This document shows, in pieces, positions 16,067-64,000 of a DNA stretch of 64,000 nt. Position 1 is the first letter of the stretch, and the number at the start of each line of letters is the position of its first letter. A program made the translations under genes and the position numbers. The stretch is from contig JAYWIR010000009.1 in the NCBI GenBank assembly GCA_036172245.1, positions 3,348,001 through 3,412,000 on the forward strand, written 5' to 3'. The notes under the pieces are model-generated. The model saw nothing but the letters and a program-made list of their open reading frames with translations, did no database searches and had not been told where the DNA came from. The DNA is from Raillietiella orientalis. Taxonomy: Eukaryota.

Positions 16067-16920
16067 CACCAGGGTAGGCCGGGGCATTTATTTATAAAAT
16101 AAACAAACATTGACCAGATCGGTGGTTGGATCTGTAGTCCAGCCCCGTCCTTTTCGTATATACCTTGCCTCATTACCGGTTCGCAGACCACTGAGGTCCA
16201 CCACGGAAGCAAAGGGGAGGGGGTAAACCAAATAAAAATAAAACAATTTGGGGGGGGTTGCGGGAAGGGATCATTGTCTGCTGGGGGCGGTCCTCTGCAT
16301 CCTATGGATGATGCTCTTGATGTTCTTGCCCAGGTAAGGCCCTTTTGTTGCCATCCTCATGAAGCGGATGGTTAAGTGAATGGCATCCCTATCGCTGGGT
16401 CCTCCTCTAGCGTCTCTCCAGGTCGCTGCGATCCCGCGCAGACAGCATAGGGGGCTGCCGGCCGAAGGGCGTCGCGAACGAGGAGGGGTTTGATGACGTC
16501 CCTGGAGTTACCGCGGGGGTTCCTAGGGCCGCGGCAAAGCGTTGCCAGAAGGGTCGAAGGGCAACACAGTCCCACAAGCAGGTGCGGGAGGGATTCATGC
16601 TCCCCGCACCTGCCACAGTTGGGGTCCACACATCCCCGAATCCAGTGATGCGGCGGGCGTTGCACGGGATGTCCCCCCGTGCAGCAGCATCAACGTCGAC
16701 TCCTGCCACTTCATGGGGAGGGGCGGGTGTTCATGAGCACCGGGGGTCACTGTAGATCTTCAACCGGAAGTTCCAGTAGCTCACCCCAGCGCAAAAGTCC
16801 TCGGGGGAGGGGAAGGGGGCACACGGGGGTCGCAGCGTCCGTGAGCTGGTGCGTCTTCCACTCGCCCAGTCTTCTCCTTCCGGAGATCCGCACAGTAAGC
16901 TCCCATCCAGCCGCGGCTCG
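16067..16920 (-). mobile_element. 5'-truncated non-LTR retrotransposon (L1/Tx1-type) 3' end, copy A
   Basis: ORF2 C-terminal zinc-binding motif DPNCGRCGEHESLPHLL..C. Homologous to 26705-27640 and 51400-52360. Ends in the family 3' motif AATAAA+20 nt..GGTG. Confidence 0.8.
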
Positions 16921-22801: not shown

Positions 22802-24797
22802 TCAGCAGGACTGGGTAGTGATGCACATCAATTTCTTGTGATTAGATAAATTACTCAGCTTGAACATATCAGCGGGTAAATCCATCTTTTTCCTCAGTGG
22901 GGATGAAAAGCTTGGTATTCTGGCATCCTACAAACATTAAAATAGACAAACAAACAAAACGGGCAACTACATGGATTGCGAACCGGTTCTGATACTGGTG
23001 TGCTGTGATCCGATGCAGATGGCACTGTATGGTAACATATGTCTCCTTGGCCGACGTGTACCGTTGAAGCCATGGTGACCAAGTCTGGCAAACTAAGTGC
23101 CTGCCTATTACGAGACGCTAGCTGATAAATACGATTCCACGCTTCCTCCCGTTTTTTGGTCAACTCTTCCTCTCTGCACAACTGAACCAACATCCAAAAA
23201 GCAGTGCACTCACCGTTGCCGTTGGGCCTCATACTGTTGTGTGCATTCATCAAAAAGTCTTTGATCCATCTCCATGAAGAGTTTGAGAGCATTGTAAATG
23301 AGTCCGTGGATGGTCTTGTTCCAGTGGGAATGGGAGGCAGCCAGCAGGGCAGGCAACAGCATAGGAACAATGACTGCTGCATTATCAGCCATCAGTGACA
23401 TGATGTACTCATTATTCCAATAATACAGAGAACGTTCAGCCACCTGGAAATGTGGGCTGGCAACTGAACGCGCTAGCTGCCGACACAGTGGCACCATCAC
23501 TTTCACAAACTCGGCCATTTCCATCACATCAAGGATTTCCTCCAGTTCATTCAAATACATCACCTGCAATGTGTATTTAGCTTGGGATTGCTTTGTGCCA
23601 GCTGCAGCTCACCTCCTTGGGACTGTGCATCTTGGGCCAGAATTTGAGAAGATTCAATACCACTGGCTCTGTTAAGCTGGCATCTTTTTCCAGAAATTGA
23701 ACCACACAGTATGCTAGCTGTGGATGGTACACAGATAATGATTTGACTTTGTGAAGAGGTAGTAAAACACGAAGCAAGAAAGTCTTGTGTTCTTGTTTGA
23801 GTGGAAGAGCAAAACCATTAATAATGCTGCCAAGGATCTCAAGCAGCTCTGCTACTCCATTATGCCTTTCAGTTTCATAAATGAACCTGTAGAATATGTG
23901 GCTGAGTTGCTTGCGGATGTATGCACGTAAAGGCAGAAGTTTCCCATATAAACGGTGCAGAATAGTTTTAAGGAAGTCACGCTCCCTTGGATCCTCGGAA
24001 TCAAATAAGTCTAACAGTTGCAACACAAACTGCTGGTCCAGGTATGGCTGCACTAGCTGCACATTTAGGTCAGGTGCTTCCAGGAAACGGAGAAACAACT
24101 CATAGATGAGTTGTAAATGAGGCCAAGCAGCTTCCAGGTTGGGTTCATCTTCTTCTGGATCAAATTCTGCTCCCGTGGGGTTGGATGATGGTGGCAACAC
24201 ACGGAACACATTGGCTGCAAACTGAGACCTTCCCTGCATGCTAGTTGATGATACCACTGGTAGCTCACCATCTTAGCCATTTCAGGGTACACTGACTCAG
24301 GAAGCAAACGATTCTTACTACCCATATATTCAATCATTTCAGCTAGAGTGGTACGCTTGATCTCTTTCCCTGTGAGATCACTCAAGGGATCGACAACAAA
24401 ATCAAAAGAGACACAGCATTGTCTTAGCTTCTGAATGAATAGGGATTCAAGCTCAGCTGGTGACGCTTCTAAAGTGAGAACAATACCAATAAAACACCAT
24501 GCTGATGACATTGGGGAGGAAAAGACAAGCAAAAAAGAAAAATGCATGCACTTGCATCTTTTTGGAGTTATAATCAAGTCTTATTATAGGCATTATGTTT
24601 TTGCACATTAGTAAAATGCAATTCCAGTTTTTACCCAGCAAACTCGGAATCCTCTGCAGTTCTGTTGCTTTTTCCGGAGATAACTCCGGGTCACAGATGT
24701 CATTTATTTGTTCTTTTCCAAAGGACTCGGGCACAGTAAAATCTCCAACGCCACCCACATTCCCCTGATCAGATGGCATTCCATCTTCCGTTTGCAT
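22802..24797 (-). CDS. PPP2R5: Serine/threonine protein phosphatase 2A B56 (B') regulatory subunit, gamma/delta-type
   Basis: Phase-consistent exons 24797-24635, 24468-24269, 24221-23613, 23563-23214, 23173-22984 and 22927-22802 with GT-AG introns. Hallmarks [50 protein letters not shown] and C-terminal LRKKMDLP (LRRKSELP-like). Confidence 0.96.
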
Positions 24798-25945: not shown

Positions 25946-26704
25946 TTTCTTGGAACCCCGGATCACTTATCAGACGTGCAAGAGTACGATTTGCCCAGGT
26001 CGGCTTGCCAGAGACTTGCTGGACCCCACCGCGGTGGTGGTGGTGGCACCCTTTCACGAGAGGGTCTCTTCCGCCGGCGCCCTCTCCGTGCGCATGCAGG
26101 CCGCTGCTTCCAAGGAGTTGGTCCATTAATCTTGCTGGAAGACGTCGAGCCCCCCCCCCCTGCTCAAGTGGTGTTCACGGTGGGGAAGAATTCGGTTTGA
26201 TACACACCAGTTTTCTTTCTTTTTTTTTTTTTCTTTTCTTTTTTCTTCCCCCCCCCCCGTCGGAACGTTCCCTTTTTTTTTTTCCCTACTCCCATCCACG
26301 GAAATGGGCACAGGTTTTTATGCGTTCAAAATGCACAGCAGAGGATGCATAAAGCTGCCTAAATGCAAGTGGACCACTACGTACAGAACGGGTTGAAGCA
26401 ATTCGTGTTCTCTACACGTCGCATTTTCTTTCTTTCTTTCCTTCTTTTTTTTTTTTTTTTTTAATCTTAGACATGTCCACGATTTGATAAGACACACACT
26501 GAGAAGATAAACTTGGATTATCGTTCTTTTTAAAACGATCGAATGGAAGATGTTGCAAGAACGCACGAGTGCATGTCATTTCAAGCTTTATGATGAAGAA
26601 ACAGATGGCTTTAAAATTCCCAAGCTGAAAATGTGAAAAGACGTCTCGTGAAAAGGATGTTAAGGTTGGTTACTTGTGGAATGGTTGGGAACGAAATGCT
26701 TTAT

Positions 26705-27640
26705 CACCCGAGTGCACCGGGACGTTTATCATAAAAATAAACATACAAAGTGTGGGGCCATCGGCCCTACAAGGTCCTAGAGAGTTCGCAACCTGCCGAG
26801 TAACCGGCACGCAGGCCAGCGAGGTTCGCCTCGTCAGCGCAGGGAGAGGGGGACAGACAAATAAGAAAATCAAAAGCATCATTTACACGCAAAAAAGTGG
26901 GAGGCTTAGGGAAGGGATCACTATCCGCTCGAGGGAGTCCTCTGCATCCTTTCCAGGCAATTTCCATCCAGATGGGGTCATCTTGCTGCCGTCCTCAGGA
27001 AGCGCGGGGAGAAGGGCAGATGGGCGCCGTCCTCCTCTCGCGTGGCTCCAGACCGCCACAATCCCACGTAGGCAGAGGCAAAGAGCTGCTGCGGCAGGCA
27101 AAAGGGCTTCGCGCACGAAGAGACGCTTGAACACGTCGGTGCACCCCAAGGGCCGTTGCGTAACGCAACCGCAGGGGCCGGAGGGCAACACAGTCTACGA
27201 GAAGGGGCGGGAGTTGGGAATTCCCGTTCCCCGCACCCGCAGCAGCCCGGGTCCAGTGGGACCGGCGGGAGTTGCACGGGAGACCCCAGTGCAACAGCAG
27301 AAGTGCCAACTCCTACCAGTTCAGGGGGAGGGCCCGTTTGTTCTTCAGCTCTGGGGGGGGGGGAGGGGGCGCTCGAGGTCTTCCTGCGGGATTCCCAGCA
27401 GCTCGCCCCAACGCAACAGTCCCTTCGGTGGGGCACTTGGGGTCGCGGAGTTTGTCAGCTGGCCCGTGGGCCAACCACCTAACTCCTTCGGTGTTCCACC
27501 GATCTCGCAACGGACCACCCATTTGGCCGGCTGGCTGGTGCTCCCAGGTGATCCCCGTGGGAAGGCAGTGCCGCGGCTAGGGAGGTTCTATCAGCCCACG
27601 CACGCGAAGCGGTGGAGGAAGAACATGGTGGTACGTAAAG
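26705..27640 (-). mobile_element. 5'-truncated L1/Tx1-type retrotransposon 3' end, copy B
   Basis: LLLLHWGLPCNSRRSHWTR and C..C..H zinc-binding region homologous to copy D. Terminal GATAAA+CGTCCCGGTGCACTCGGGTG. Confidence 0.8.
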
Positions 27641-33442: not shown

Positions 33443-33856
33443 AAACGCCGTCGGAGACGGACGTGTGGCGACCCGCACCCTGCGGGGACGGCCCTCGGGG
33501 GGGTCAGAAACAGGGACGAGTGAAGGGAGAGAGGGAGAGCAGATAAAAAAACAAGCAGATGGAGAGAGGGACGCATCCTCCCCGCGGCATTCGGCATGCT
33601 TCCCGGTGCTGGGCGAAGAGGCCGCAGCAGCCGCAAGACCGCCAGCGCGGGCAAGTCGGCCCCTTTCATTCCCGCCCCATCCAGTGCGGACCCTCAGGAA
33701 CGACGCCGAATTCCGCAGGACTGATCCGTCCCTCTCCCCATTTGCTTGTTTGTCTATCTGCTCTCCCTCCCTTCTTCCTGCTCGTCCCCGGTTCTGCCTC
33801 CCTACGGACCGTCCCCGAGGGCTCGGATCGCCGCATGTCGGTCTCCGTCAGCATTT
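33443..33856. repeat. Long imperfect inverted repeat (fold-back), arms of about 165 bp
   Basis: 33443-33605 matches the reverse complement of 33693-33856, e.g. gagggagagcagataaaaaaacaagcagatggagagagggacgcatc vs gagggagagcagatagacaaacaagcaaatggggagagggacggatc. Confidence 0.85.
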
Positions 33857-34071: not shown

Positions 34072-34700
34072 CACCTGGTCACTCCTGGACATTTATTTAT
34101 AAAATAAACATACATGTCTGTGGCAGGACGTTCGATCCTGCCACGTTACTTATAAATACGGGAAGGAACCTTCCGAGAACTGACACTCAGGCCAGTGATG
34201 TCTCCTCAGCAGCACAGGGCAGGGGAAAACAAACAAAAAGAAAAAGATAAAACGAAAAACATAAGTCAAAAATATGGGGGGGTTCCGGAAGGGATCACTG
34301 TGTGTTGGAGGGCGTCCTCTGCATCCTTGTAAGGATGGCGGCAGGTTCCTGTTTTATGGGGCCACCCAGATGGGGCCACCTTGACGCTGTCCTCATGAAC
34401 ATCAGAATGAACATGAAAATACATGGCATCCCTGTCGTCGTGGCCTCCTCTGGCGTTGCTCCATGCAGCCACGGTCCTGCCACGTGGGAAGCACAGTGCT
34501 GCTGGAGATGCGGCCGGCGTGAGGGGGTCGCGCAGGAAGAGGCGCTTTCAAACGTCTCTGGCGTTGCCGCCGGGGGTTCCAAGGGTTGAGGCAAAGCGTC
34601 CCCAAAGGGGCCAGAGGGCAACACAGTCCACTAGGAGGTGCGAGAGGGATTCCCGCTTCCCGCACCTGGCACAGTTTGCATCCACACCCCCTCTAGTGGA
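34072..34700 (-). mobile_element. 5'-truncated L1/Tx1-type 3' end, copy C (more diverged)
   Basis: Homologous to the ORF2 end and 3' UTR of copies A, B and D. Terminal AATAAA+TGTCCAGGAGTGACCAGGTG. Confidence 0.75.
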
Positions 34701-43330: not shown

Positions 43331-43459
43331 TGGGATTCAGAGCTTCAGAGCGGAAGGATTCAGCGGAACCAGGGGTAATTTGGGAGTAGCATCGCGGTAA
43401 GGGAATAACCGTCTCCTTCTCGCTCAAGGGGTCGATCCCTCTCTCTGGACATTCCAAGA

Positions 43460-43620
43460 TCTGTCTTCCTCCTGCTTCATTGCTCTTCCTCTCTCTTTCA
43501 CCTCTTCCTCTTTTCACCCTCTCCTCTTCCTTCCTCTTTCTTCTTCTTCCCCTTCTTTTTTCCCTCTCCTCCTCATCTCTTCCTCCTCCTTTCTCTTCCT
43601 TCCTCCCCCTCCTCCTCAGC
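43460..43620. repeat. Polypyrimidine (TC/TCC) low-complexity tract
   Basis: About 160 nt almost exclusively C and T on the + strand. Confidence 0.85.
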
Positions 43621-43700
43621 TCGGTCTCCAAACCGGGAGATGCAAGCGATCCTACGCAATCAGAGTGAAACGCAGAAAAGCAGCGGGCGAAGCTCCCTGC

Positions 43701-46372
43701 CTTCTCCCGGCTGTTATCGTTTCCTCTCTATGCCGGCTGGGGTCCCTCCCTGTTCCGTCTTTCCCCCTTTTCCTCCCTTCCCTTCCTGTCTCTCTCCCTC
43801 GCTTCCGACTTCTCGCTCAAGGAACTCTGGGAGCGGTGCGCGCGCCTAGCCCGCCGCGTTTGGACCCGTCGCACGGTGGCGCCCTCAGTGTACGACCGCT
43901 GCAGGGACAGTACGGTGCTCTCTTGGAAAGGAGGCCAGTGTCGCGTCCGAAAGACTACAGGCTGCCGCGCCCTCGGCGTTCCAGCGACGCCGCCCCTCAT
44001 TGCCGACGGGGTCGAGGAAGAGGAACCGGCGCCGGCCGCTCGTCCTCTGCGTACTGGTGATGCTGTGCGCTGTCCCGTGCCACCCCCTCCGCCCCTGCGC
44101 GAGCACGGTCGAAGCTGTGAGGCGGGCGGTGTTCCATGCCCTCTCCTCTCACAAGCGGTGGCGCCTGGACTGTCTGTCGTTCGCGAGCGCCATAGCCGTC
44201 ACGCCGGTCGCACCGGAGGGAGGCTGCGACTACCGAAAGCTGGGCGACGTCCACAACGGTGCGTACAGCTTTCTCGTCCGCGACGAGGCGACGGCTGGCG
44301 TGGATCTCCCGGAGACCGTCGGCGACCCCGTGCCCGTATTCCCTTGGACCGACCTCGGAGTGCCCTCGGACGTTGAGAGAGCCCACGAGCTATCCGGGCA
44401 GAAGTTGGACGTCTGCGCGGTCATCAATCCCCCATACGTGTACCTCACCGAAAGGGGTCCGGACGGCATCGAATATCAGGTGCTCTCCCTCTTGGCGGGG
44501 CGGCTGAAATTCACATACGAGATAAACTTCCTGAACTCGTCCTCCAGCTACGCCCCATGGGACAGCTGCATTGGGGACCTCGACAGAGGCAGGTACGACC
44601 TCGCCATGGGCGGTTACTATTCGAAATACCCGAACTACGACAGCACAATGGAGTTCCTGGTCAGTCGCGTGCTAATCCTCACCAACTACTACTCCTCGGC
44701 GTCCTGCTACGTCCTGATCCTGAAATCCTTCGAGGTGGAAACGTGGATCGCATTGTACGGGATGTGCGTCCTGGTGTGCGCTCTGGGGGTGGCCTCGCTG
44801 ACCTTGCGGTGTCGGCAGCGGAGATTACGCCTCACCGTCGGCTTGGTGGAGGACGTGGCTTTCGACGTGTTCAGCGCCGCGGTGCTGCAGGCGGAGAAAG
44901 AGAGGCCGTGGTGCCCTTCCTACGGAGTACTCCTGCTCTCCTGGAAGATCTGCATGTTCACCGTGTGCTGCGCCTTCCAGGCTTCGATCCTCTCCCTTCT
45001 GGTGAACAGCTGCGTGAAGACCATCGACACAAAGGAGGAGCTCAACAGCTCCATGCTGAAGCTGGCATGGAAACCGTTCTACATCTTCCCGAAGAGCCTG
45101 CATCTGAAGAACGAGCTCGAGTTGCGCTTCGCAACCATCGAGGACGCCCTCCAGGAGATGAGGGACCAGGAGAACAAGTTTGCCGTCCTCACGGACTATG
45201 AAAGTCTGCGGTCTGCATCCGCGAGCATCCAGAAACTCCAGAGAGAAGGGCACTTCTACTTCAGCAAGAAATTCGTGACAGAGAACTCCATCGTCATCTA
45301 CCTGAGCAAGATGAGACGCCTCCGGGACCCCATGAACCTCATCATGCTGCGACTTCTCGAGACGGGGGTCCTGCAGTACCTCATCGTCTTCTTCGGAATG
45401 GACACGTCGTTTGTCAGCCATATGGACGTCCCCGAGAAGAGGATCGAGTTCCTCCAGATAAGCAGCGTGTATTTCATGTTCTGCTTCTTGATCTTCATCT
45501 CCTGCGCGTCGTTCCTGCTCGAGCTGATGCACAGCAGGACCGCCGGAAGTGACAGCAGCGGCGCTGCTCGAGCACGCGGTCGAGCAGAGTGAGAGCGCGC
45601 AAAAGGACGCGCGCGGTGCCCATTTCCCCCGCATCGGATTCTCCGCGGAGGGACGCAGCCACGCATCCCACTGGCGTCGCTCGTTAGCTGGTCTCTACCT
45701 CGGTGTGGTCAATAAACGCTGGAATTTCTTCTGTCACATCGACCACGTCAACGGCATGCCTTTTGGCAATTTTTGCCCTCATCCTCGTTCAGGCGAACTG
45801 GAAAGCGTCCAGAGATCGAAGGTGGTCCCGCATCACCTTGGAAGCTGATGCTTCTCTCCTCTCTTTTCTTCTCTTCTCTCCTCTTCTCTTCCTCACTCGG
45901 CGGTGGTGTCCATCGAATGTCCCACCTTCTCGGGAATAGGATGGCTCCCGCTGCATCCTCGTGACGCCAACCGGACCGGGTCTAGCGGCTCCGGGTTCCA
46001 CGACTCTCTCCGTGTTCTCCAGCGAGATCCCAGATCTCCGCCGCAAGGGAAACGCTGCTGCCTCCTACCTTCACGGTTCAGATGCGCTGGCGGATGGTGG
46101 CTCCATGTGGCGGTGGTGTTGCATCTTCCGGGATAGGCAGGGCGAGGACACGATGACGGCGATGGCGATCGCCCGGTAGGTTCCGCACACCACGCCACCC
46201 TCCGGCGGCGACTGGACGGATGGATTTGCAGTCCTGTGTGAGCTGCAGAGTGGCTTCAGCAGTCCCCTGAGCATCGGAAAGGGGAGAGTTCTGGAGCGGG
46301 AAAATGTTGGAGAACCCTGAGGAGCGACAGCGATGGTGCAGTGCAAGTCAGCCAGCCAGCATGTATGCTAAC
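43701..46372 (+). repeat. Direct segmental duplication, copy 1 (2672 bp; copy 2 at 55631-58302)
   Basis: Starts cttctcccggctgttatcgt and ends gcatgtatgctaac in both copies, with a constant offset of 11930 nt and no indels seen. Confidence 0.97.
44000..45592 (+). CDS. Intronless divergent ionotropic receptor (IR / iGluR-like ligand-gated channel), copy 1; first in-frame ATG at 44060
   Basis: S1 lobe (PPYVY..DGIEYQVLSLLAGRLKFTY..WDSCIGDL..DLAMGG), pre-M1 KSFEVETW, M1, M3 AFQASILSLL (diverged SYTANLAAF), S2 MNLIMLRLLETGVL and M4. Strong GC3 codon bias. Confidence 0.88.
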   Translation: MPTGSRKRNRRRPLVLCVLVMLCAVPCHPLRPCASTVEAVRRAVFHALSSHKRWRLDCLSFASAIAVTPVAPEGGCDYRKLGDVHNGAYSFLVRDEATAGVDLPETVGDPVPVFPWTDLGVPSDVERAHELSGQKLDVCAVINPPYVYLTERGPDGIEYQVLSLLAGRLKFTYEINFLNSSSSYAPWDSCIGDLDRGRYDLAMGGYYSKYPNYDSTMEFLVSRVLILTNYYSSASCYVLILKSFEVETWIALYGMCVLVCALGVASLTLRCRQRRLRLTVGLVEDVAFDVFSAAVLQAEKERPWCPSYGVLLLSWKICMFTVCCAFQASILSLLVNSCVKTIDTKEELNSSMLKLAWKPFYIFPKSLHLKNELELRFATIEDALQEMRDQENKFAVLTDYESLRSASASIQKLQREGHFYFSKKFVTENSIVIYLSKMRRLRDPMNLIMLRLLETGVLQYLIVFFGMDTSFVSHMDVPEKRIEFLQISSVYFMFCFLIFISCASFLLELMHSRTAGSDSSGAARARGRAE

Positions 46373-48330: not shown

Positions 48331-50088
48331 TTACTGTTGTAAACAAAAGGAAACCTCTGGACAAGAACATGCCTTCCGTGGAAGACTATCCTGCAGTGGG
48401 TGCGAGTGAACGGCTCGGGACTGGAGCCTTTCTTTTGAGATCTTAAACCTTCTGATGTACGCACTGCGTAAGGTGCTCACTGTCTCCAAAAAAAACACCA
48501 AAATGGAGATCATGGAAGCAAAGACAGCTATGCACTGGAGCTGCAGTGACTTCAGTGAGTAAAATTGATTCTTGAAATGCATCACTTTCTCCTGGAAAAG
48601 GATTGCGTTCTCTTCTCGTCTTTCGGAAGAGACGTGATAATCGATAAATCCCGACTCGAGCATCTGTGTCAGCACAGGGTCGAAAGCTTCTTTCAGATGC
48701 TTCCGGGTGCTCGTGTAAATGCCCGCCTGTGCTACCAGGAAGGCCCTCTTGGCTAGATAGAAAGACTGGGCACTTTCCACGCTATCCTCCATGAGTCTAA
48801 GCGTTAGCAGGAAAAAGTCTCTTGACACCACTAGCGCAAACCGGTCCTTTTCGGTCTTCATTTTTTGCAATGCGCCCGCAAGGGTCAAGTTTCTATCGCT
48901 CAGTCGATAACCCATGAGACGCAAATGTTCCCTATACCTAGGAGGAACAAACAGAACCTCGAGATTGCCTTTTTTGATATCTCTGATGTCGTCAACAAAT
49001 CGGAAACAATTCTCTTTTAACATGATAGGTGACAAGTATGCTGTAGATAAGGAAGAAATAACAAGGAGGTACCATGCGGAAGCGAGCAATGCAAATTTGT
49101 AGGTTCGCCGCGTCCTCCGCTTTCGATCTTCTTGGCTCGGTGGCGCGAGAAGAAGATGGAATATCCAGAGATGTGGTCTGTTGCTGCGCTTGCCAGGGAG
49201 TCTCGAAGAAGCTCGCAGAGAAATCCACAATAACAAGACAACCCCACCCATCCCCAACCACACGGAGGTGTCGAAACTCTCGATGAAAGAGTAAAGGGAC
49301 ACTTCGCAGGTGTCGTTCCACGTGGGAGCCGTGATGATGTCCACGTACTGGACATACGCAACCTTCAACAGCTGCACTTCGGGACTGAGCAAACGTGCCC
49401 GACGTGCCCAAAGTCCTCCTATAGCAATGTCTGATGCTTTTTGTTGCAGAGGTAATATGCAGAGTTCCCAAGAGTAAATGTCGTACACGTTGGTTTGCAC
49501 GACCACCGTGTAAGTGAAATTGAGCCTTTCGGCTAAGAATTCTATGATTTTCATGTCGATGCCACAGAATTTGCCTTCTTCAGTGATGAAAAAGTAAGGT
49601 TTGAGGAGCAGTGCGCATATGTGGAATTTCTGTCCCTGAAAATTTTGGAATCTTCCCATCGCCGCAGGGCGGGTCAGCGTCTTCGGATCCGATTGAGGTG
49701 GGAGGTCGGCTGTGTTCCCTCGACTGCCAGTCTTGAGCAAGCCGTGCGTCGACCAGAGCGCCTGGTGCCGTTGCGGACGCTGTGCAGATGGCTGGTCCGT
49801 GAGTTCATTGGCGAAGATGGCGTAAAGCGATTTCATCTCTGTGGACTTGGGGAAGCCCTCGAAGTTACATCCTACTGAGCTGAAGTGTTCGAACTCTGGA
49901 AGGACGTCGGTGTTGTTCGCGAACAAACACTTCAGGGACGAGAACACGGTTCTGCTGCTGTTTCTGACAGCTGCAGCGATCTGACGGTAGGTGTGATCGT
50001 GACCCTTCTTGCACACAAGGAATTCACCAACACTGCACAAAAGCACCAAACGCAGGGATGCAACAGGGATGCCCAGTTTCTGATGCAT
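48331..50088 (-). CDS. Intronless divergent ionotropic receptor (585 aa from ATG 50088)
   Basis: Signal-like MHQKLGIPVASLRLVLLCSVG. S1 KPYF..CGIDMKIIEFLAERLNFTY..SDIAIGG, ESFDTSVW, M1/M3 helices, S2 FDPVLTQMLESGFI and M4. Confidence 0.88.
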   Translation of the reverse strand: MHQKLGIPVASLRLVLLCSVGEFLVCKKGHDHTYRQIAAAVRNSSRTVFSSLKCLFANNTDVLPEFEHFSSVGCNFEGFPKSTEMKSLYAIFANELTDQPSAQRPQRHQALWSTHGLLKTGSRGNTADLPPQSDPKTLTRPAAMGRFQNFQGQKFHICALLLKPYFFITEEGKFCGIDMKIIEFLAERLNFTYTVVVQTNVYDIYSWELCILPLQQKASDIAIGGLWARRARLLSPEVQLLKVAYVQYVDIITAPTWNDTCEVSLYSFIESFDTSVWLGMGGVVLLLWISLRASSRLPGKRSNRPHLWIFHLLLAPPSQEDRKRRTRRTYKFALLASAWYLLVISSLSTAYLSPIMLKENCFRFVDDIRDIKKGNLEVLFVPPRYREHLRLMGYRLSDRNLTLAGALQKMKTEKDRFALVVSRDFFLLTLRLMEDSVESAQSFYLAKRAFLVAQAGIYTSTRKHLKEAFDPVLTQMLESGFIDYHVSSERREENAILFQEKVMHFKNQFYSLKSLQLQCIAVFASMISILVFFLETVSTLRSAYIRRFKISKERLQSRAVHSHPLQDSLPRKACSCPEVSFCLQQ

Positions 50089-51029
50089 CGAGGAGATCAC
50101 CGATTCCACTCGTTCGAATCCGCCCCCTGAGCGAGCACCAGGGTGCAGCCTCGTCTTGCGAGGTGTCTTTCCTGAGTATTCAGTGCGCAAGCGCTGCTGG
50201 CACAACTGGCGAGTGCCTCCTGCGCTGCAGGTGCGCGAATCGCAAACGATGGCGCTCAATTATTAACACGAAGGATATGCCTGCGCCTATAAAATATGCA
50301 AACTACGGCCGTTCCTTCTGCGGGAAGTACGTCCGGCGAGTGGCGCTCCCATCGGCGGCGCGACGGCATTCGATGCACGTCCTGATTTACGGCTGCGTTT
50401 CATAATTCAAAAGGCATCATCTTCGGGCGTTCCCAATTACAAATTTCCCTGGGCAGCCTCACAATCCAAGCAACCTTTGAGATTTATTTGGTCAAGGAAT
50501 GAAGGACGTGAATTATTCAGGCTCCGAGACATCGGCACCCACGATCGCTCGCGGGCTGCCGTTCTCGGGCGCGCGCCGAGGGCAGCAGCATCCCCGCGGC
50601 TGGCCTCCGAGAGGCACCCCTCCTTCGAGACGTTCCCGTTTGCTGTCCCTTGCCGGCGTCTCCCTTTTCAGCATCCACCGTCCCCGCCGCGTGCGCCGTA
50701 AGACTCTTCCGCCACCACGTCTTGCTCGCGACGCGGGGCCTTCCGCCGCCGAGGGCGGAGAACAAACTTCCGGAACGATCGATCTCGGATTCTCCGGGGG
50801 TCATCGGGATTTTCCTCAGCCCTCCTCGTGCCCTCCGGAGGAGAACGCGGGACGCGCAGCCGCGCGCGTCATTCGTTCTACGCAGCGTCCCCGCTTTCCT
50901 GTTCCCAGAGTTGCAGCTAGGAAGAAGGGAAACCGAAAGTGAAAGAATCAAGAATGGAATGAGAGGCCGAGGATGGAAGAGAGGTGAACGAATCGGAATT
51001 CGTCCTCCTCTCCTTCCACCTTCTGCGGT

Positions 51030-51399: not shown

Positions 51400-52360
51400 A
51401 AAGCTCCTGAAACACCCCATGAAGAGTGCCGTATGCAAGAAAAACCTCCCTTGCCGCAGGGCTGCCTCCCCGAGGGAACATACGGGAAGCAGCCTCCTAG
51501 CTAGATGGTATGGAAAGCTTCTCCAGGAGAAGAGGACTGGGTAATTGGACGACTGTCAAGCTTACAGACGCTGAGATGACGATTGACCCACCTCGAGGAC
51601 TCTTGCGCTGGGCCGGGCTACTGGATATTCCGGAGGAAGACCTCCAGTGGTCACCAGTGCTTTTGGGCAGACGCATCCTCCGTTTGGATTGGCAGGAGTC
51701 TGCGTTGATGCTGCTGCACTGGGACCTCCCATGCAACGCTCGCCGGTCTCACTGGACCCGGGGAGCTGTGGACCCCAACTGTTGCAGGTGCAGAGAACAG
51801 GTATCGCCCCCGCACCTGCTAGCAGACAGCGTTGTCCTCCGGTCCCTGTGGTTGCTTTATGCAACGGCCCTTCGTGCACCGAGAGACAATCCCAGGCACA
51901 TGACAAAGCGCCTCTTCGAGCGCGATGCCCTTTCGCATGCGGCATCCCCAGAGGCTCTTTGCTGCTGCCCACGCGGGACTGTGGAGTCCTGGAGCTAGGC
52001 GAGAGGCTGACGGCGCCATTGGGATGCCATCTGCTTCGCCCTCAGCTCCATGAAGACGGCAGCTAGGTGACCCCACCTGGGACATACTAAGAAGGAACTT
52101 GACGGCATCCTGGAAAGGATGCAGAGGATGCCCTCCAGCGGAATGTGATCTCTTCCCTAACTTCTCCAATTTTTGTATATACTTTTCTTTTAATTTTTTT
52201 TTTTTGTTTGCCCCTTCCCCCTCCGCTGCCGAGGAGGACCTCGCAGGCCGATGTGCTGGTTAGTCGGCAGGTTCCGAGCATTTTCGAGCAATGTAGGGCC
52301 GATGAACCCACGCATGTATGCTTATTTTTTATAATAAACGCCCCGTCGTGACCGGGTGAT
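51400..52360 (+). mobile_element. 5'-truncated L1/Tx1-type 3' end, copy D
   Basis: ORF 51510-51998 encodes LHWDLPCN..DPNCCRCREQVSPPHLL..LW (zf-RVT-like). T-rich 3' UTR; terminal AATAAA+CGCCCCGTCGTGACCGGGTG. Confidence 0.85.
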
Positions 52361-52459
52361 AAAGAACTGTGCCAGGTGCGGCGAGCTGGAATCCCTACCG
52401 CACTTGCTTGTGGATTGCGTTGCTGTCCGGCTCCTCTGGGAACGCTTTGCCGTGACCCT

Positions 52460-52950
52460 AGGAACCCCCTGAGGAACTCCAGGCATGCTTTACAACCCCT
52501 ACTCTTCCTACGCGACGCTCTTCGGTAGGCAGCCTCGTTGGCAGCCCTCTTCTGCTTATGCGGGATTGCGTCGCCATGCAGGGATGCAAGCGGAGGACCG
52601 AGCAACAGGGGTGCCACACCCACTTTGCCGTCTGATTCATAAGGATGGCAACAAGATGGCCCCACCTGGAAACCAAATCCAGCAAGAATTGCCGGCATCC
52701 TCGAAACGACGCGGAGGACCTCCCCAGCAGGACGTCACCCCTTCTCGCACCCCCACCCCTTCCTCCCAAGTTTATTTATTTTAGCTTTGCTTACTCTGCC
52801 GCCGAGGTGGACCTCACCGGTCTGCCTACCAGCAGCCTGGCAGGCTCCCGTTAAACTGCACTCGGCTGGACCAGGTCGGTCCAGCCACAGAGATTGTGAA
52901 AGTGTCTTTTTTATTTGTGGAATAAACGCCCTGTGGCACCCAGGTGATAA
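52460..52950 (+). mobile_element. L1/Tx1-type 3' end, copy E (diverged subfamily)
   Basis: ORF2-end and 3' UTR homology to copies A and F. Terminal AATAAA+CGCCCTGTGGCACCCAGGTG. Confidence 0.75.
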
Positions 52951-53649: not shown

Positions 53650-55630
53650 CTGATCATCCTCCAGCGCCCTGGGCAACCTTCCTCCAGCGTCCAGGCGGAG
53701 TAGTGACCTCAGGTCGCACCAGCGTGCGCATTCGCCGGATGTGGAGGGGCAGCTTCTCTCAGGGAGGACAGCTGCAACGCGCAAGGACTCCCTGGGAAAA
53801 GGTCAGCGCTATCCGGCGCCCCCAAGTCCCGCCGGGCTCGATACTAGAGGAGCCTCCGACACGGAAGGGACGCTGCCCTCTGGACGGGCGCATTTCGACG
53901 AAGGCGGAGACCGCGCCGCGTTCCCTCGGTTGCCTTGTTGATCAAGAGACGGCTCGGAGGACGGTTGCAGCACTCCGGGAACGGGAAGCCCAGAGGCCCA
54001 GGTGTGCGCATCCAAGGGAGTCAACGAGGGCGGGGTCATGGGGGAGGAGGGGGTCCGTGCCAGCGAACACGTCGGACCGTGGCCGCAGGGCGCCCATGCG
54101 GTGCGGCCAGAGGGGTCGTCACGCACACGCACCCCGAAAGAAGTCACAATGCCCGAAGCGTCGGCCGAACTTCCGGCTGCGCGAAGACGACACACGTATC
54201 TGTGGTCCGCCCTCTCCCCTCGCGTGCGCTTTTCAGAAGCGGACCCGTCTCTTTCCACGGCAACGCGACGCGCGCCCTGCCCCCATTCCGGGAACTCCGC
54301 CCTCCCGCCTGTCTATTCCCCCCTTTCGCCTCCCGTCGTTGGCGCCACCGCGTCTCCAGCCCTTGCTGCTCGCGTGACGTCACGGGATCGCTCCGACGCG
54401 CCGGCGGCGGCGCTCGCGGGCGTGCAGCCTCCGGGCGTTGCCGAGCGTTGCAAAGTTCGGAAGGATCGTCTGAAATAAGACGCGGGGCACCACGGGCACC
54501 CACGCGGGAGGCCCGCAGGCCGACGTGCCGCCATTGCCTTTCCTCCGGCGCAACCGCACCGAACACGCGCGAGAAGGTCTCTCCCTGTTTATACAAAGGA
54601 GGGGATGAGACGGCACCCGTCTGCCCCCTGCGCCGCCCCGCGGACTTGGCTCTTCCCGAGCGGAGGCGCCTCGCTCGGACCTCCCTGCACTCGCAGAGCC
54701 GCGAGCGGCGCGACCCGAAGGTGCGGAGGAGGCGGTGAGCAGGAAGGGAAACGCCCTGCTCGGTCCATCGCCGGCCCCACTCTGGGACTCCGGCCGTGGC
54801 CCAGAAGGCATCATCGGTGGTGCGGCGGCTGCGGAGGGCCTTCCGACGAGTCCGGTCGAGGATGCCGCGACCCGCGTTGACCTCCGACCTGCACGCTTCT
54901 CGCTCCGGGGCTCACTGGGGAGAGGGACACGCATTTCGGACGATCTGTCTCGAAGAGGAGCATGTTTCTGGCGGGGAGTCCCTCCGAGCGGACCCTGGCT
55001 CCGACCCGGAGCGTCCTCGGGCACGCAGGGGGACACCCCTGCCGGGGGCGAGGTTCCCGCCTGGGGACCTCAAAAGTGGGGCGGGTGCGTGGGCCGGGGC
55101 GCAGGCGCGGGGAGGAGGTCGTCCTGCCCGGGAGGAGCCCGTGGTCGCTGTCGCCTCTTCTTCTCCTCCCATCCGGGTCCGGAGCGTGGCTGATGACCTC
55201 CCTCTCTCGGGGGGTTCGCCCGTCCCGGCGACGGGCGGCCCTCAGGAGCGATGGGAGGATCCGGGAGGAGCGCCTCCTCTGGCACGGCAGACCACTGCCG
55301 CAAGAAACAACCGGTCCCGCCCTGGACAAGGACGTTGTCCCGACACCGAACTGCCACCTTCATGGTCACGGGAGCTTCGGAAACCGTCCCTGACCCCCAG
55401 GGTGCCGTTCTCGATCGCATCTCCCTGGCGACGCTGGGAGCGATTCGCGGCTTCTTCGGGACCCGCCAGTCCGCGGGCCCTCCTTGCAGTCGGCCCTTGC
55501 CTCTTCCTGGTTAGTAACCAAGCCGGTTCTCTCGCAGCCTGTCGCAAGGGGATAGGTGGATGCCCCCTCCAACATGCCGACTTGGGGCGCCGGAGGGGAA
55601 CCGCCACAGCAGCGGGCCATCGCCCACTAG
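53650..55630 (-). mobile_element. Decayed L1/Tx1-type element: AP-endonuclease remnant (about 53650-54350) plus probable ORF1/5' region
   Basis: Minus-strand PLDAHTW, VSEAPLV (SDHxPV) and RWCDLRSLLR. Nucleotide similarity to 37130-37600. Confidence 0.45.
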
Positions 55631-58302
55631 CTTCTCCCGGCTGTTATCGTTTTCTTTCTATGCCGGCTGGGGTCCCTCCCTGTTCCATCTTTCCCCCTTT
55701 TCCTCCCTTCCCTTCCTGTCTCTCTCCCTCGCTTCCGACTTCTCGCTCAAGGAACTCTGGGAGCGGTGCGCGCGCCTAGCCCGCCGCGTTTGGACCCGTC
55801 GCACGGTGGCGCCCTCAGTGTACGACCGCTGCAGGGACAGTACGGTGCTCTCTTGGAAAGGAGGCCAGTGTCGCGTCCGAAAGACTACAGGCTGCCGCGC
55901 CCTCGGCGTTCCAGCGACGCCGCCCCTCATTGCCGACGGGGTCGAGGAAGAGGAACCGGCGCCGGCCGCTCGTCCTCTGCGTACTGGTGATGCTGTGCGC
56001 TGTCCCGTGCCACCCCCTCCGCCCCTGCGCGAGCACGGTCGGAACCGTGAGGCGGGCGGTGTTCCATGCCCTCTCCTCTCACAAGCGGAGGCGCCTGGAC
56101 TGTCTGTCGTTCGCGAGCGCCATAGCCGTCACGCCGGTCGCACCGGAGGGAGGCTGCGACTACCGAAAGCTGGGCGACGTCCACAACGGTGCGTACGGCT
56201 TTCTCGTCCGCGACGAGGCGGCGGCTGGCGTGGATCTCCCGGAGACCGTCGGCGACCCCGTGCCCGTATTCCCTTGGACCGACCTCGGAGTGCCCTCGGA
56301 CGTTGAGAGAGCGCGCGCGCTATCAGGGCAGAAGCTGGACGTCTGCGCGGTCATGTACTCCCCATACGTGTACTTCTCCGAAAGAGGTCTGGACGGCATC
56401 GAATATCAGGTGCTCTCCCTCTTGGCGGGGCGGCTGAAATTCACATACGAGATAAACTTCCTGAACTCGTCCTCCAGCTACGCCCCATGGGACAGCTGCA
56501 TTGGGGACCTCGACAGAGGCAGGTACGACCTCGCCATGGGCGGTTACTACTCGAGATCCCGAAACTACGACAGCACAATGGAGCTCCTGGTCAGTCGCGT
56601 GCTAATCCTCACCAACTACTACTCCTCGGCGTCCTGCTACGTCCTGATCCTGAAATCCTTCGAGGTGGAAACGTGGATCGCATTGTACGGGATGTGCGTC
56701 CTGGTGTGCGCTCTGGGGGTGGCCTCGCTGACCTTGCGGTGTCGGCAGCGGAGATTACGCCTCACCGTCGGCTTGGTGGAGGACGTGGCTTTCGACGTGT
56801 TCAGCGCCGCGGTGCTGCAGGCGGAGAAAGAGAGGCCGTGGTGCCCTTCCTACGGAGTACTCCTGCTCTCCTGGAAGATCTGCATGTTCACCGTGTGCTG
56901 CGCCTTCCAGGCTTCGATCCTCTCCCTTCTGGTGAACAGCTGCGTGGAGACCATCGACACAAAGGAGGAGCTCAACAGCTCCATGCTGAAGCTGGCCTGG
57001 AAACCGTTCTACATCTTCCCGAAGAGCCTGCATCTGAAGAACGAGCTCGAGTTGCGCTTCGCAACCATCGAGGACGCCCTCCAGGAGATGAGGGACCAGG
57101 AGAACAAGTTTGCCGTCCTCACGGACTATGAAAGTCTGCGGTCTGCATCCGCGAGCATCCAGAAACTCCAGAGAGAAGGGCACTTCTACTTCAGCAAGAA
57201 ATTCGTGACAGAGAACTCCATCGTCATCTACCTGAGCAAGATGAGACGCCTCCGGGACCCCATGAACCTCATCATGCTGCGACTTCTCGAGACGGGGGTC
57301 CTGCAGTACCTCATCGTCTTCTTCGGAATGGACACGTCGTTTGTCAGCCATATGGACGTCCCCGAGAAGAGGATCGAGTTCCTCCAGATAAGCAGCGTGT
57401 ATTTCATGTTCTGCTTCTTGATCTTCATCTCCTGCGCGTCGTTCCTGCTCGAGCTGATGCACAGCAGGACCGCCGGAAGTGACCGCAGCGGCGCTGCTCG
57501 AGCACGCGGTCGAGCAGAGTGAGAGCGCGCAAAAGGACGCGCGCGGTGCCCATTTCCCCCGCATCGGATTCTCCGCGGAGGGACGCAGCCACGCATCCCA
57601 CTGGCGTCGCTCGTTAGCTGGTCTCTACCTCGGTGTGGTCAATAAACGCTGGAATTTCTTCTGTCACATCGACCACGTCAACGGCATGCCTTTTGGCAAT
57701 TTTTGCCCTCATCCTCGTTCAGGCGAACTGGAAAGCGTCCAGAGATCGAAGGTGGTCCCGCATCACCTTGGAAGCTGATGCTTCTCTCCTCTCTTTTCTT
57801 CTCTTCTCTCCTCTTCTCTTCCTCACTCGGCGGTGGTGTCCATCGAATGTCCCACCTTCTCGGGAATAGGATGGCTCCCGCTGCATCCTCGTGACGCCAA
57901 CCGGACCGGGTCTAGCGGCTCCGGGTTCCACGACTCTCTCCGTGTTCTCCAGCGAGATCCCAGATCTCCGCCGCAAGGGAAACGCTGCTGCCTCCTACCT
58001 TCACGGTTCAGATGCGCTGGCGGATGGTGGCTCCATGTGGCGGTGGTGTTGCATCTTCCGGGATAGGCAGGGCGAGGACACGATGACGGCGATGGCGATC
58101 GCCCGGTAGGTTCCGCACACCACGCCACCCTCCGGCGGCGACTGGACGGATGGATTTGCAGTCCTGTGTGAGCTGCAGAGTGGCTTCAGCAGTCCCCTGA
58201 GCATCGGAAAGGGGAGAGTCCTGGAGCGGGAAAATGTTGGAGAACCCTGAGGAGCGACGGCGATGGTGCAGTGCAAGTCAGCCAGCCAGCATGTATGCTA
58301 AC
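55631..58302 (+). repeat. Direct segmental duplication, copy 2
   Basis: Near-identical to 43701-46372. Confidence 0.97.
55930..57522 (+). CDS. Intronless divergent ionotropic receptor, copy 2; first in-frame ATG at 55990
   Basis: Same architecture as 44000-45592, with 19 amino-acid differences by my count. Confidence 0.88.
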   Translation: MPTGSRKRNRRRPLVLCVLVMLCAVPCHPLRPCASTVGTVRRAVFHALSSHKRRRLDCLSFASAIAVTPVAPEGGCDYRKLGDVHNGAYGFLVRDEAAAGVDLPETVGDPVPVFPWTDLGVPSDVERARALSGQKLDVCAVMYSPYVYFSERGLDGIEYQVLSLLAGRLKFTYEINFLNSSSSYAPWDSCIGDLDRGRYDLAMGGYYSRSRNYDSTMELLVSRVLILTNYYSSASCYVLILKSFEVETWIALYGMCVLVCALGVASLTLRCRQRRLRLTVGLVEDVAFDVFSAAVLQAEKERPWCPSYGVLLLSWKICMFTVCCAFQASILSLLVNSCVETIDTKEELNSSMLKLAWKPFYIFPKSLHLKNELELRFATIEDALQEMRDQENKFAVLTDYESLRSASASIQKLQREGHFYFSKKFVTENSIVIYLSKMRRLRDPMNLIMLRLLETGVLQYLIVFFGMDTSFVSHMDVPEKRIEFLQISSVYFMFCFLIFISCASFLLELMHSRTAGSDRSGAARARGRAE

Positions 58303-61331: not shown

Positions 61332-64000
61332 TTAATTGCTGCAGGGGCGAAACAAGGATCCATTGCTCACTGGTCCCACCATCTCCAGGTCAACTGATGT
61401 GTGTCGACTCTTTTTTGTTTCAGCATCAGGTGGTCTGTGCGTTTTCATATGAGCACTGCGGCTTTTGACCTTGGGAAAAACTCTAAACCGCGTATATGTA
61501 ATTGGCAACCAATTCCAGCGTACTTGCCACAAATTTTGCATGGAAATTCTTCGAAACTTTCAGATACCAAACAGCGAGGAGGCGTGCTTGCATATGGGCG
61601 GTTGTGAAGCATTAAGGCCTGCTGGCTTGGAAAACACTGCAAAAAAGTGTTGCCACTGCACTTGAGGGGCAGGCGTACATACTGAGAAACAGTCGGGAGA
61701 ATCACACCAATTCAAGTGCATCTCTCCATTCTGGTGTTCAGTCTTATGACAATTATATGAAACGAAATTGGCACTATTATGCCCAGAGTGGCACTCTGTG
61801 TCCAGACCAAGGGCTACCATTCGTAAACGCAAGCCATAAAGGTGATCAGCCTCATGGCGACAACGCATTGTTCTCATGCGCTGATGTTCATCACAACAAG
61901 TTTTCTTCCACAGATAATAAAACTGTATGCAATGGGCTCTTGTCTTGGTACCCAAATGCTGGGATATGGCAGCAAAGTCTTTACTATAACGTGCTAATGC
62001 TGACTGAAAACCATCAAGCTCTTCTTGTTGCCATACATCAGTATGTGGATATTCCATATCTGATAAGGGATGGCAAGATGAGGATGCACTTAGCAGTTCC
62101 AGCATGGCAGCCTAATGACCGGGAGAAGTACAATGTCTCAAGCAATCCTGCCTCTTACCTGAATGTTTCCTGAGCATAAGTACAACACATTCAAGGCATA
62201 CTCAATGTTACGTCCTCCAGCTGGTAAAGCAGCACAGCACATCAAATCCAAGTAATTTTGTACTAATCCATAATATGTGACACTGCAATCAACATGCAAC
62301 TCACCTTCATCTTCCTGAAGATCAGTCACACAGAGAGGATCCCAAAGTAAAGTAGCATGATCTGCATCTGTACAACGTGCTGACTGCCATGCTGGAATAT
62401 CACACTGATGCTCGACTCCTACATTGATGTGGGGCAAATCTGAATTTACAGGAGCGTCAGGTACATGGACAGCTGCTCCAGTTTCGTAACTAATTGTTCA
62501 CCTCCAGCAAATTCAGACTTACCATTTGGACTGTTAGGGTGGTGGGAGCAATAGGCAAGCAAAACTTGCCAGTACAAACCACTTCCCCAACGTAATGGAT
62601 TCAGTAAAGGTGGAGCAATATAAGGAAGAGATTCTTGAGATTTTTCCACACAAATTGCATGCAAATACGAATGAAAGGGAGTAATGGAATTTCTTCCCAA
62701 ACAACACCAGGAATGAGGAGGATGTTTTTTTCTCAAAGTCTTAAAAGCACTATGATGGAAGAGCAATTTTAGTTCTCAGAACACAACAAAAGGAATAATT
62801 ACCTTATTTGAGTGAAGAAGACATCATCTTCAACTTCATCTTTCTCAGACAGTGCAGAAACATGAGCACAATTAGGATGGGATGATGAATTTTCTGACAA
62901 ACAAGAACCGATGCTTACATTTCTTTCTGTGACCAAACCAGACAAATGTTTGTTTGCAAGAGCAGGCACAGCAAGATTGTGGAGTGATGTATCTTCCATT
63001 TTTAAATAATTTGAAGATTCTGATGACAATGCAGTAAACTGTTTGTCTGCAACCACACAAACTGATTCCATAAGAGAAAAATTCGTTGAAGAATAGGGAA
63101 TAGGAAGATGATCTGGTGGGGGGAACTGCATGACCATGCTAGGTGAATACGGTGTTTCATGAAACTGATACATATCAGTATTGTTTTCATGTGGTTGTTG
63201 AAGAGCAGAGTGCACAGAAGTTTTTGATTTGTTAAAAGCACCAATAACATCAACTTCTGATGTCATCAATGGGGACAGATATGCACCATGGCCATTTTCT
63301 AAGGGGGAATGAATAGGAGATGACAATGATGTCTGTGACTGAGTTTGCAGAAGATTCTCTTGAATGGAAGCCGCCGAAAATTCTTGTAAACTTTGGTTAT
63401 CTGCAAAAGCAAGCTCTGAGAAAGAGCTCAATGCCTGACTTTCCTCTAATTTTTGCAAGGCCTTAGCAGCTTGAATAAGTTCCTGGATGTGTTCCTGATT
63501 TGGCAGATCATTCACATGAATCCCTTCAGCATTCAACATTGCTTTGGGATCTTCCATAAAACCATTTTCATCGATCTGGGAGAGTTCATGAGGGGGAGTG
63601 GTTTCCAGCATGGGCACATAATCAGGAGAATAAAAACCATCTGAAGCACTACCAACAGACTCTAAAAACCGACCAGATTCTGAGCCAAGTACAAAGTTTT
63701 CTGAGCCAAAATTGTAACAATCAAGTGGAGTTGGCGCCTCAGAATTCTTTAATGATCTCACACTATTTCCAATTTCACCTAGCATCATCATCGAATCGGG
63801 AGAAGAGGAAGGCAAACCCAGCACCTCCAGATTATCTAGATCTGTATCTTTATCATCACGATTCTTTAGTAATTCATTCAACTGAAAAGCATCTTCCTGT
63901 TTGAAACTGTTCACATCCATTTCTTGGCACACTGATAATTTGAGAGGGTCATAAACTGAAGCAGCTTCACATGCAGTATTGGTGTTACTGACAAGAACAT
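61332..64000 (-). CDS. TRERF1: TRERF1/ZNF541/MIDEAS-family ELM2-SANT C2H2 zinc-finger transcriptional regulator (3' part)
   Basis: Exons >64000-62803, 62749-62502, 62439-62305, 62262-62159, 62111-61683, 61636-61524 and 61482-61332 are phase-consistent. Motifs PYIAPPLLNPLRWGSGL, ELM2 INVGVEHQ, SANT W..E..F..KDF..IQFYYLWKK and [23 protein letters not shown]. Confidence 0.9.

Follow-up and report, generated by a model that had tools for sequence, protein, structure and literature searches.

Two receptor genes on one contig are close to identical over most of their length and into their flanks, and yet a few short stretches set them apart; were these stretches altered by selection, or were they exchanged with, or protected from, other copies? 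The question is raised by a 64-kb stretch of the Raillietiella orientalis genome (NCBI GenBank assembly GCA_036172245.1, contig JAYWIR010000009.1, positions 3,348,001 to 3,412,000 of the forward strand; 64,000 nucleotides (nt), hereafter the window), which carries two real tandem single-exon paralogues, copy A and copy B or together the twins, of a lineage-specific ionotropic-receptor-like subunit, i.e. a variant ionotropic glutamate receptor (iGluR). A first-pass annotation made from the sequence alone had recognised the pair as ionotropic receptors (IRs) and explained their differences either by strong diversifying selection on the ligand-binding site or by short gene-conversion tracts from other paralogues. 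The results discussed here give no support to the first of these explanations and favour gene conversion: the pattern of differences is best read as a mosaic left by non-allelic (interlocus) gene conversion, a reading to which we attach a probability of about 0.68.

The duplication is larger than the span compared in the first-pass annotation. Self-BLAST of the window aligned two blocks of 2.7 kb (Table 1) with 98.55% identity over 2696 columns, 36 mismatches and 3 gap openings, and at both edges identity falls to background within a few bases, the homology of the copy A block being unambiguous from 43701 onward. No homology beyond the block was detected within 3 kb on each side of either copy; therefore, the block is a discrete unit and not a duplicated haplotype. 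The twins are in direct orientation, 12 kb apart, with 9.2 kb of unique sequence between them that carries a different gene on the other strand, and the window contains no N. A CT-rich low-complexity tract (43400-43660) lies directly upstream of the block edge of copy A and is absent upstream of copy B. An origin of the block as a retrocopy was also considered and is not supported, as the 3' edge lacks a poly(A) tract; a single AATAAA occurs at 45711.

An ungapped recount of 44000-45592 against 55930-57522 returned exactly the figures first annotated, namely 28 substitutions, 25 of them in 44110-44655 (within 44112-44654) and 3 in the other coding nucleotides (45017, 45067 and 45554). These mismatches occupy 25 codons of the frame 43850-45592, of which 19 change the amino acid and 6 are purely synonymous, and the codon table bears out this earlier count as well (19 nonsynonymous and 9 synonymous differences by the Nei-Gojobori method). 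Two differences were found in the 780 nt of the 3' flank (45593-46372) and three in 359 nt of upstream non-coding sequence, giving 33 differences in the 2672 ungapped nucleotides of the whole comparison; the count for the 3' flank and both pairs of peptides quoted in the annotation were likewise correct. The densest windows held 13 differences in 78 nt, 19 in 272 nt and 25 in 546 nt, densities that none of 100,000 permutations equalled; 7 differences in 35 nt came up in a single one. Clumping persists inside 44112-44654, both for the 13 differences in 78 nt (P=1.1e-4) and for the run of 159 identical nucleotides (P=0.007). The clustering of differences is thus not a product of chance, and it delimits two patches on either side of an identical stretch, preceded by a looser scatter in the N-terminal region that is itself enriched over the interior background (6 in 180 nt versus 3 in 1989 nt, P=4e-7). 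The earlier description of these patches as hypervariable was drawn from a comparison of only two sequences.

The silent sites proved decisive for the interpretation of these clusters. Counts were made by the Nei-Gojobori method with the patches set as codons 178-204 and 257-269 of the open reading frame (27 + 13 codons). Over the whole coding sequence (CDS) there are 9 synonymous differences in 358.8 sites and 19 nonsynonymous differences in 1171.2 sites, so that omega, the ratio of nonsynonymous to synonymous divergence (dN/dS), is 0.64 and neutrality is not rejected (P=0.27). The two patches hold 7 synonymous differences in 27.2 sites (dS 0.32) and 12 nonsynonymous differences in 92.8 sites (dN 0.14), with an omega of 0.45; for the rest of the CDS the figures are 2 in 331.7 sites (dS 0.006) and 7 in 1078.3 sites, with an omega of 1.08. 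In none of the three partitions, whole CDS, patches or rest, is omega significantly above 1. Silent divergence is about 50-fold higher in the patches than in the rest of the CDS (Fisher P=2e-7), and it is also higher than in the 52 codons between them, which have no silent difference in 35 sites (P=0.0018). Tests that do not depend on any patch limits agree with this, a single 27-codon window containing 4 of the 6 silent codon changes (P=0.006), and 4 of the 6 being no more than 2 codons away from a replacement (P=0.003). The non-coding parts of the block are as similar as the coding background. It is an expectation of population-genetic theory that linked selection leaves the neutral substitution rate unraised. 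Since selection on replacements cannot raise local silent divergence, the strong diversifying selection proposed in the first-pass annotation is not supported as the source of the clusters. Conversely, the remark made there that the synonymous changes cluster too, and that this indicates sequence exchange, is upheld by the silent-site excess. Because silent sites are far more diverged in the patches, these must be much older than the rest of the block.

What the patches may mean for receptor function depends on the identity of the protein, which required sensitive searches to establish. In each copy a single uninterrupted frame extends over 580 codons between stops. Upstream of the first ATG 70 codons are open (43850-44060 and 55780-55990), with no earlier in-frame ATG and with identical sequence in the two copies, and a hydrophobic, signal-peptide-like stretch, PLVLCVLVMLCAVPC, spans the first ATG; the real start of the twins may lie in an upstream exon or at a non-ATG codon. 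Pfam matches were all below the gathering cut-offs: SBP_bac_3 at 20.2 bits (cut-off 26.4), Lig_chan at 12.5 (30.8) and, in copy B only, Lig_chan-Glu_bd at 12.9 (30). A word-indexed homologue search with copy A as query retrieved nothing at E<=1e-3, and a search with profile A1 retrieved three proteins, all distant. By contrast with the word-indexed search, phmmer against 1.84 billion representatives returned 15 proteins at E<=1e-3 (best 4.7e-6), the full-length matches being 21-24% identical; those with a name are insect and nematode proteins, and 14 of the 15 carry PF00060 (Lig_chan) at E<=0.01, 9 of those above the gathering score. The nearest clusters in the ESM Atlas are arthropod Lig_chan clusters (0.97). 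Among metagenome contigs 151 pattern matches were found, none of them confirmed by tblastn, and Rfam gave nothing at its gathering thresholds.

Structure prediction points the same way. The AlphaFold2 model used was built on a 23-row alignment (A2), the single-sequence model being unusable with a predicted local distance difference test score (pLDDT) of 36. Over most of residues 110-495 its pLDDT is 70-90. Three helices interrupt its bilobed domain and a fourth lies at the end (predicted helices 226-253, 260-275, 286-315 and 464-495). Foldseek matched it, among the matches listed, to iGluR chains comprising the full ligand-binding domain (LBD) and transmembrane domain (E 1.7e-17, 416-452 columns), and VIA-align superposed model residues 106-454 on iGluR LBD crystal structures, among the best 50, with Z 20.4-21.8 and a root-mean-square deviation of 2.5-3.0 A over 207-228 residues. 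Residues 1-108 have a pLDDT below 50 and no Pfam match, and they form no amino-terminal domain; about 108 residues precede the S1 segment of the LBD when counted from the first ATG, a length to be read with the uncertainty of the true start codon. In M3 the twins have CAFQASILSL where iGluR-like homologues have SYTANLAS. In the S2 segment an iGluR-like homologue has AIIAE where the twins have AVLTD, so that the acidic residue is seemingly kept; the threonine column of S2 could not be placed. Judged by the predicted fold and by the homologues carrying Lig_chan, the twins are distant members of the iGluR/IR superfamily, in agreement with the receptor identity first annotated.

On this scaffold the changed residues, numbered from the first methionine, were placed on the domain by alignment. 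Patch 1 carries H109R and E110A before strand beta1, I122M, N123Y and P124S at the end of beta1 beside the nearly invariant Pro125, and L129F, T130S and P134L in the next strand and loop, together with four silent codons. Patch 2 carries K189R, Y190S, P191R and F199L in the loop after the conserved D-L-A-M-G-G strand, together with one silent codon. Five further replacements, E18G, A19T, W34R, S70G and T78A, make up the N-terminal scatter, K320E lies just past M3 and S499R in the C-terminal tail. Residue 189 aligns, both in the HMMER pairwise alignments of the two copies to GluN2B and in the MAFFT family alignment, with the S1 arginine column of the E-R-S-E-V-V-D motif, which is occupied by Lys in copy A and by Arg in copy B and in a third paralogue of the window; with a 3-residue gap adjoining the site, this placement is good but not certain. 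In iGluRs the S1 arginine (Arg485 in GluA2) binds the alpha-carboxylate of the agonist. Residue 123 would presumably match Glu402 of GluA2, at the lip of the cleft. In the family alignment, those S1 columns in which the twins differ show somewhat greater variability than the others (mean entropy 2.80 versus 2.45 bits, one-sided P=0.04). Two aligners thus agree with the first-pass annotation in setting the second patch on the site of the carboxyl-binding arginine. The accompanying statements were worded too broadly: that the patches border the agonist pocket holds for patch 2 and only in part for patch 1, and to place the changes almost only in ligand-binding patches overstates the case, as 5 of the 19 replacements belong to the unmodelled N-terminus, 2 precede beta1, 1 follows M3 and 1 sits in the C-terminal tail. 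From the alignments, at most about 7 of the 19 would occupy recognised pocket or cleft positions.

The block accordingly combines a young background, with about 0.15-0.6% divergence in coding and non-coding sequence alike, and old short stretches in which synonymous divergence is about 0.3, and two routes by which interlocus conversion could have produced such a mosaic can be envisaged. In the first, the twins, as direct repeats, would keep homogenising each other by conversion while selection would remove those tracts that overwrite a few pocket-lining residues, among them the S1 arginine column (K in A, R in B) and the cleft lip after beta1, so that divergence, silent neighbours included, would build up only at the patches. 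In the second, the 2.7-kb block would have been duplicated recently, and unseen paralogues would then have supplied it with short pieces of roughly 35-80 nt. The first route can do without an unseen donor, and the direct orientation of the twins at a distance of 12 kb makes them suitable partners for it. It is also favoured by the differences at the block edges, 3 in 57 nt at the 5' edge (P=1e-4) and 2 in 83 nt at the 3' edge (P=0.007) against 3 in 1989 nt of the interior, these zones having been chosen post hoc, and by base composition: GC content at third codon positions is 0.83 in the twins (44060-45589) and 0.59 in the neighbouring paralogue (48331-50259), and the 3' flank of the block has a GC content of 0.60, compared with 0.52 and 0.43 immediately beyond its edge. 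Values of this kind are expected from GC-biased conversion, of which the GC pattern of the twins may be the signature. At the difference sites within the patches, the strong base is in copy B at 8 and in copy A at 6, i.e. there is no bias. The very low non-coding divergence was counted for the second route. Taken together, we regard the two routes as nearly balanced, with a slight lean towards the first.

Several observations weigh against conversion, by one route or by both. The boundaries of the patches and of the edge zones were drawn with the data already in view, and the numbers involved are small. There are only two sequences, with no outgroup by which the changes could be polarised. No k-mer of at least 12 bases from either version of a patch occurs elsewhere in the 64 kb that could point to a donor; three 11-mers of the patch versions were found far away in the window and are taken as chance. 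The third paralogue, considered both as a conversion donor and as an outgroup, is too divergent for either use (23% identity) and is informative at the arginine column only. The first route has to accommodate perfect identity up to the block ends (the first 22 nt and the last 43 nt), which favours a young duplication, and islands so narrow that a young duplication explains them more easily. The second would need a number of distinct tracts to arrive in very quick succession, every one of them within the 5' 550 nt. Finally, at 44628-44632 and 56558-56562 the copies have TAC CCG and TCC CGA (YP and SR), and these three adjacent differences of patch 2 would be explained just as well by a -1/+1 pair of indels, with one A lost and one A gained five bases on, that is, by a compensated frameshift over two codons, which is a mutational path.

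This last observation is among those that speak for the best-surviving rival to a conversion mosaic, which we nevertheless hold to be unlikely: clusters of untemplated mutation, laid down either during an error-prone replicative duplication by break-induced or template-switching repair or by a later episode of clustered mutagenesis, their location in the LBD being coincidental. Error-prone synthesis at junctions raises differences near the junctions of a duplication. Differences are raised at both junctions of the block; three changes of patch 1 create in copy B a perfect self-complementary (GC)5 run (56311-56320) where copy A has GCCCACGAGC; and omega values of about 0.5-1 make selection unnecessary. 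A divergence of 17% over 78 nt and 35 nt with 159 identical nucleotides in between is, however, dense for such a mechanism, no local direct or inverted template of at least 9 bases explains any of the clusters except the (GC)5 run, the spectrum of changes is ordinary (17 transitions to 11 transversions), and the changes strike the canonical arginine column and the conserved Pro-Pro turn.

An artefact of assembly or polishing, either alleles set in tandem or reads of other paralogues mixed into one consensus, is a shade less probable again. Near-identical repeats of 2.7 kb are difficult to polish, but the copies stand in a window without N, separated by the 9.2 kb of unique sequence and its other-strand gene, and neither reading frame is broken in its 580 codons. 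A tandem haplotig would moreover have duplicated the flanks, and since these are unrelated over 3 kb on each side, tandem alleles are unlikely. Very improbable, lastly, is a scenario in which the genes were duplicated recently and strong diversifying selection then acted on new point mutations of the agonist pocket. It could claim the 19 replacement against 6 silent codons, the replacements on the S1 arginine column and beside the Pro-Pro turn after beta1, and the somewhat greater variability of the changed S1 columns across the family, but is contradicted by an omega of 0.64 overall and 0.45 in the patches and by silent sites about 50 times more diverged there than elsewhere.

The third paralogue of the window, on the other strand between the twins, aligns with copy A at 22.8% identity over 386 columns (tblastn E 1.4e-21); its canonical S1 arginine column is occupied by Arg, and its N-terminus resembles a signal peptide. 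Further away, a PP2A B56 regulatory subunit is represented by a large exon on the minus strand at 23580-24272 (Pfam B56, E 3e-95); its identity to proteins among the matches listed is at most 84%, the top rows including brachiopod, ostracod and tick sequences as well as vertebrates at 82-83%. An open frame on the minus strand at 61563-62111 encodes a Myb/SANT-like DNA-binding domain (PF00249, E 5.7e-8) and is probably an exon of another gene. Interspersed repeat copies occur at 16453-16806, 26699-26957, 34165-34687 and 51591-52534, and at 33452-33595 and 33705-33847, with 74-80% identity and in both orientations; one pair is inverted and close, and one set lies between the third IR-like gene and copy B. 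They are probably decayed transposable elements. The coordinates of the receptor genes and of their regions are collected in Table 1.

Table 1. Receptor genes, duplicated block and clusters of differences, in window coordinates.
Feature	Positions	Strand	Remarks
Duplicated block, copy A	43679-46372	+	about 380 nt upstream, CDS and 780 nt downstream; blastn self-match
Duplicated block, copy B	55608-58302	+	blastn self-match
CDS, copy A	44060-45592	+	510 amino acids, first ATG to stop; single open frame
CDS, copy B	55990-57522	+	510 amino acids; first ATG at 55990
N-terminal scatter, copy A	44112-44291	+	6 differences; region without confident model
Patch 1, copy A	44383-44460	+	13 differences in 78 nt; pre-beta1 linker, strand beta1 and next loop of S1
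Inter-patch stretch, copy A	44461-44619	+	159 nt, identical in both copies; conserved S1 core including invariant Gly136
Patch 2, copy A	44620-44654	+	6 differences in 35 nt; contains the canonical S1 arginine column
Patch 1, copy B	56313-56390	+	counterpart of copy A patch 1
Patch 2, copy B	56550-56584	+	counterpart of copy A patch 2
Third IR-like gene	48331-50088	-	single exon, 585 amino acids from first ATG; between the twins; tblastn with copy A

Mosaics of this kind have precedents. Micro-conversion in class I and class II genes of the major histocompatibility complex (MHC) and conversion among clustered vertebrate olfactory receptor genes bring tracts of tens of nucleotides into ligand-contacting parts, leaving clusters of replacement and silent changes together. 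The second route envisaged above follows the same logic, with the difference that donors are known in those systems and none is known for the twins. Islands of divergence at the binding sites of otherwise homogenised duplicates are familiar from the MHC, from opsins and from olfactory receptors. As proteins, the twins resemble, in the predicted model, the cores of GluN2B, GluK2, GluA2 and GluR0 in their bilobed fold and in an alignable S1 arginine column, and would differ from these iGluR cores in the lack of an amino-terminal domain, in the Lys that takes the place of the arginine in copy A and in the adjoining 3-residue deletion.

Among IRs themselves, tandem single-exon genes have been described in Drosophila, where growth of the repertoire was attributed to non-allelic recombination in the sections consulted of Croset et al. 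2010 (PMC2924276). The twins share with the 'divergent' IRs, as portrayed in those sections, a single exon, a tandem arrangement, a short N-terminus, an LBD-channel-LBD organisation and a divergent LBD; unlike them, they are known here from their genes alone and are at most 24% identical, at full length, to any protein of the library searched. The same sections make no mention of gene conversion. Interlocus conversion has been detected with GENECONV in Drosophila IR orthogroups, mostly of divergent IRs (Almeida et al. 2014, PMC4122928); in the parts of that paper considered, the tracts make paralogues more alike, and islands of divergence confined to the LBD are not described. The closest parallel to the first route is provided by the tandem ATP1A1 paralogues of Leptodactylus frogs, which, according to the portion consulted of Mohammadi et al. 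2020 (10.1101/2020.08.04.234435), are homogenised by ongoing conversion while selection keeps a dozen substitutions around the toxin-binding site apart. The logic is the same; that case, to judge from the same portion, has multi-species data and protein engineering behind it, whereas the twins are two sequences from one assembly for which such selection is inferred. Among the papers listed in the literature searches, no title or opening of an abstract describes LBD-restricted divergence between near-identical IR paralogues. Tandem IRs, gene conversion among IRs and divergence islands at binding sites are therefore already known as phenomena; what is new is the very divergent IR lineage.

A more general lesson concerns the reading of such loci, since an excess of replacements in a binding site is no evidence of selection unless the silent sites are checked, and here they overturn it. 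With no relative above 24% identity in a library of 1.84 billion proteins, the gene lineage represents a new, unsampled IR-like branch. If the patches are held apart against homogenisation, the twins would provide a natural minimal set of residues for the tuning of an IR to its ligand, in the form of eleven S1 replacements, including K189R at the arginine column, set in a scaffold that is otherwise the same, and the two receptors may then differ in what they bind. It is tempting to go further and to see in the twins members of a larger IR subfamily that would pass pocket tracts, the lip after beta1 and the arginine loop, from gene to gene as micro-conversion cassettes while the remainder stays uniform. 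Although we give this extension little credence at present, ligand specificities would, if it were true, be recombined much as MHC or immunoglobulin V segments are, which would amount to a germ-line mechanism for the diversification of chemoreceptors.

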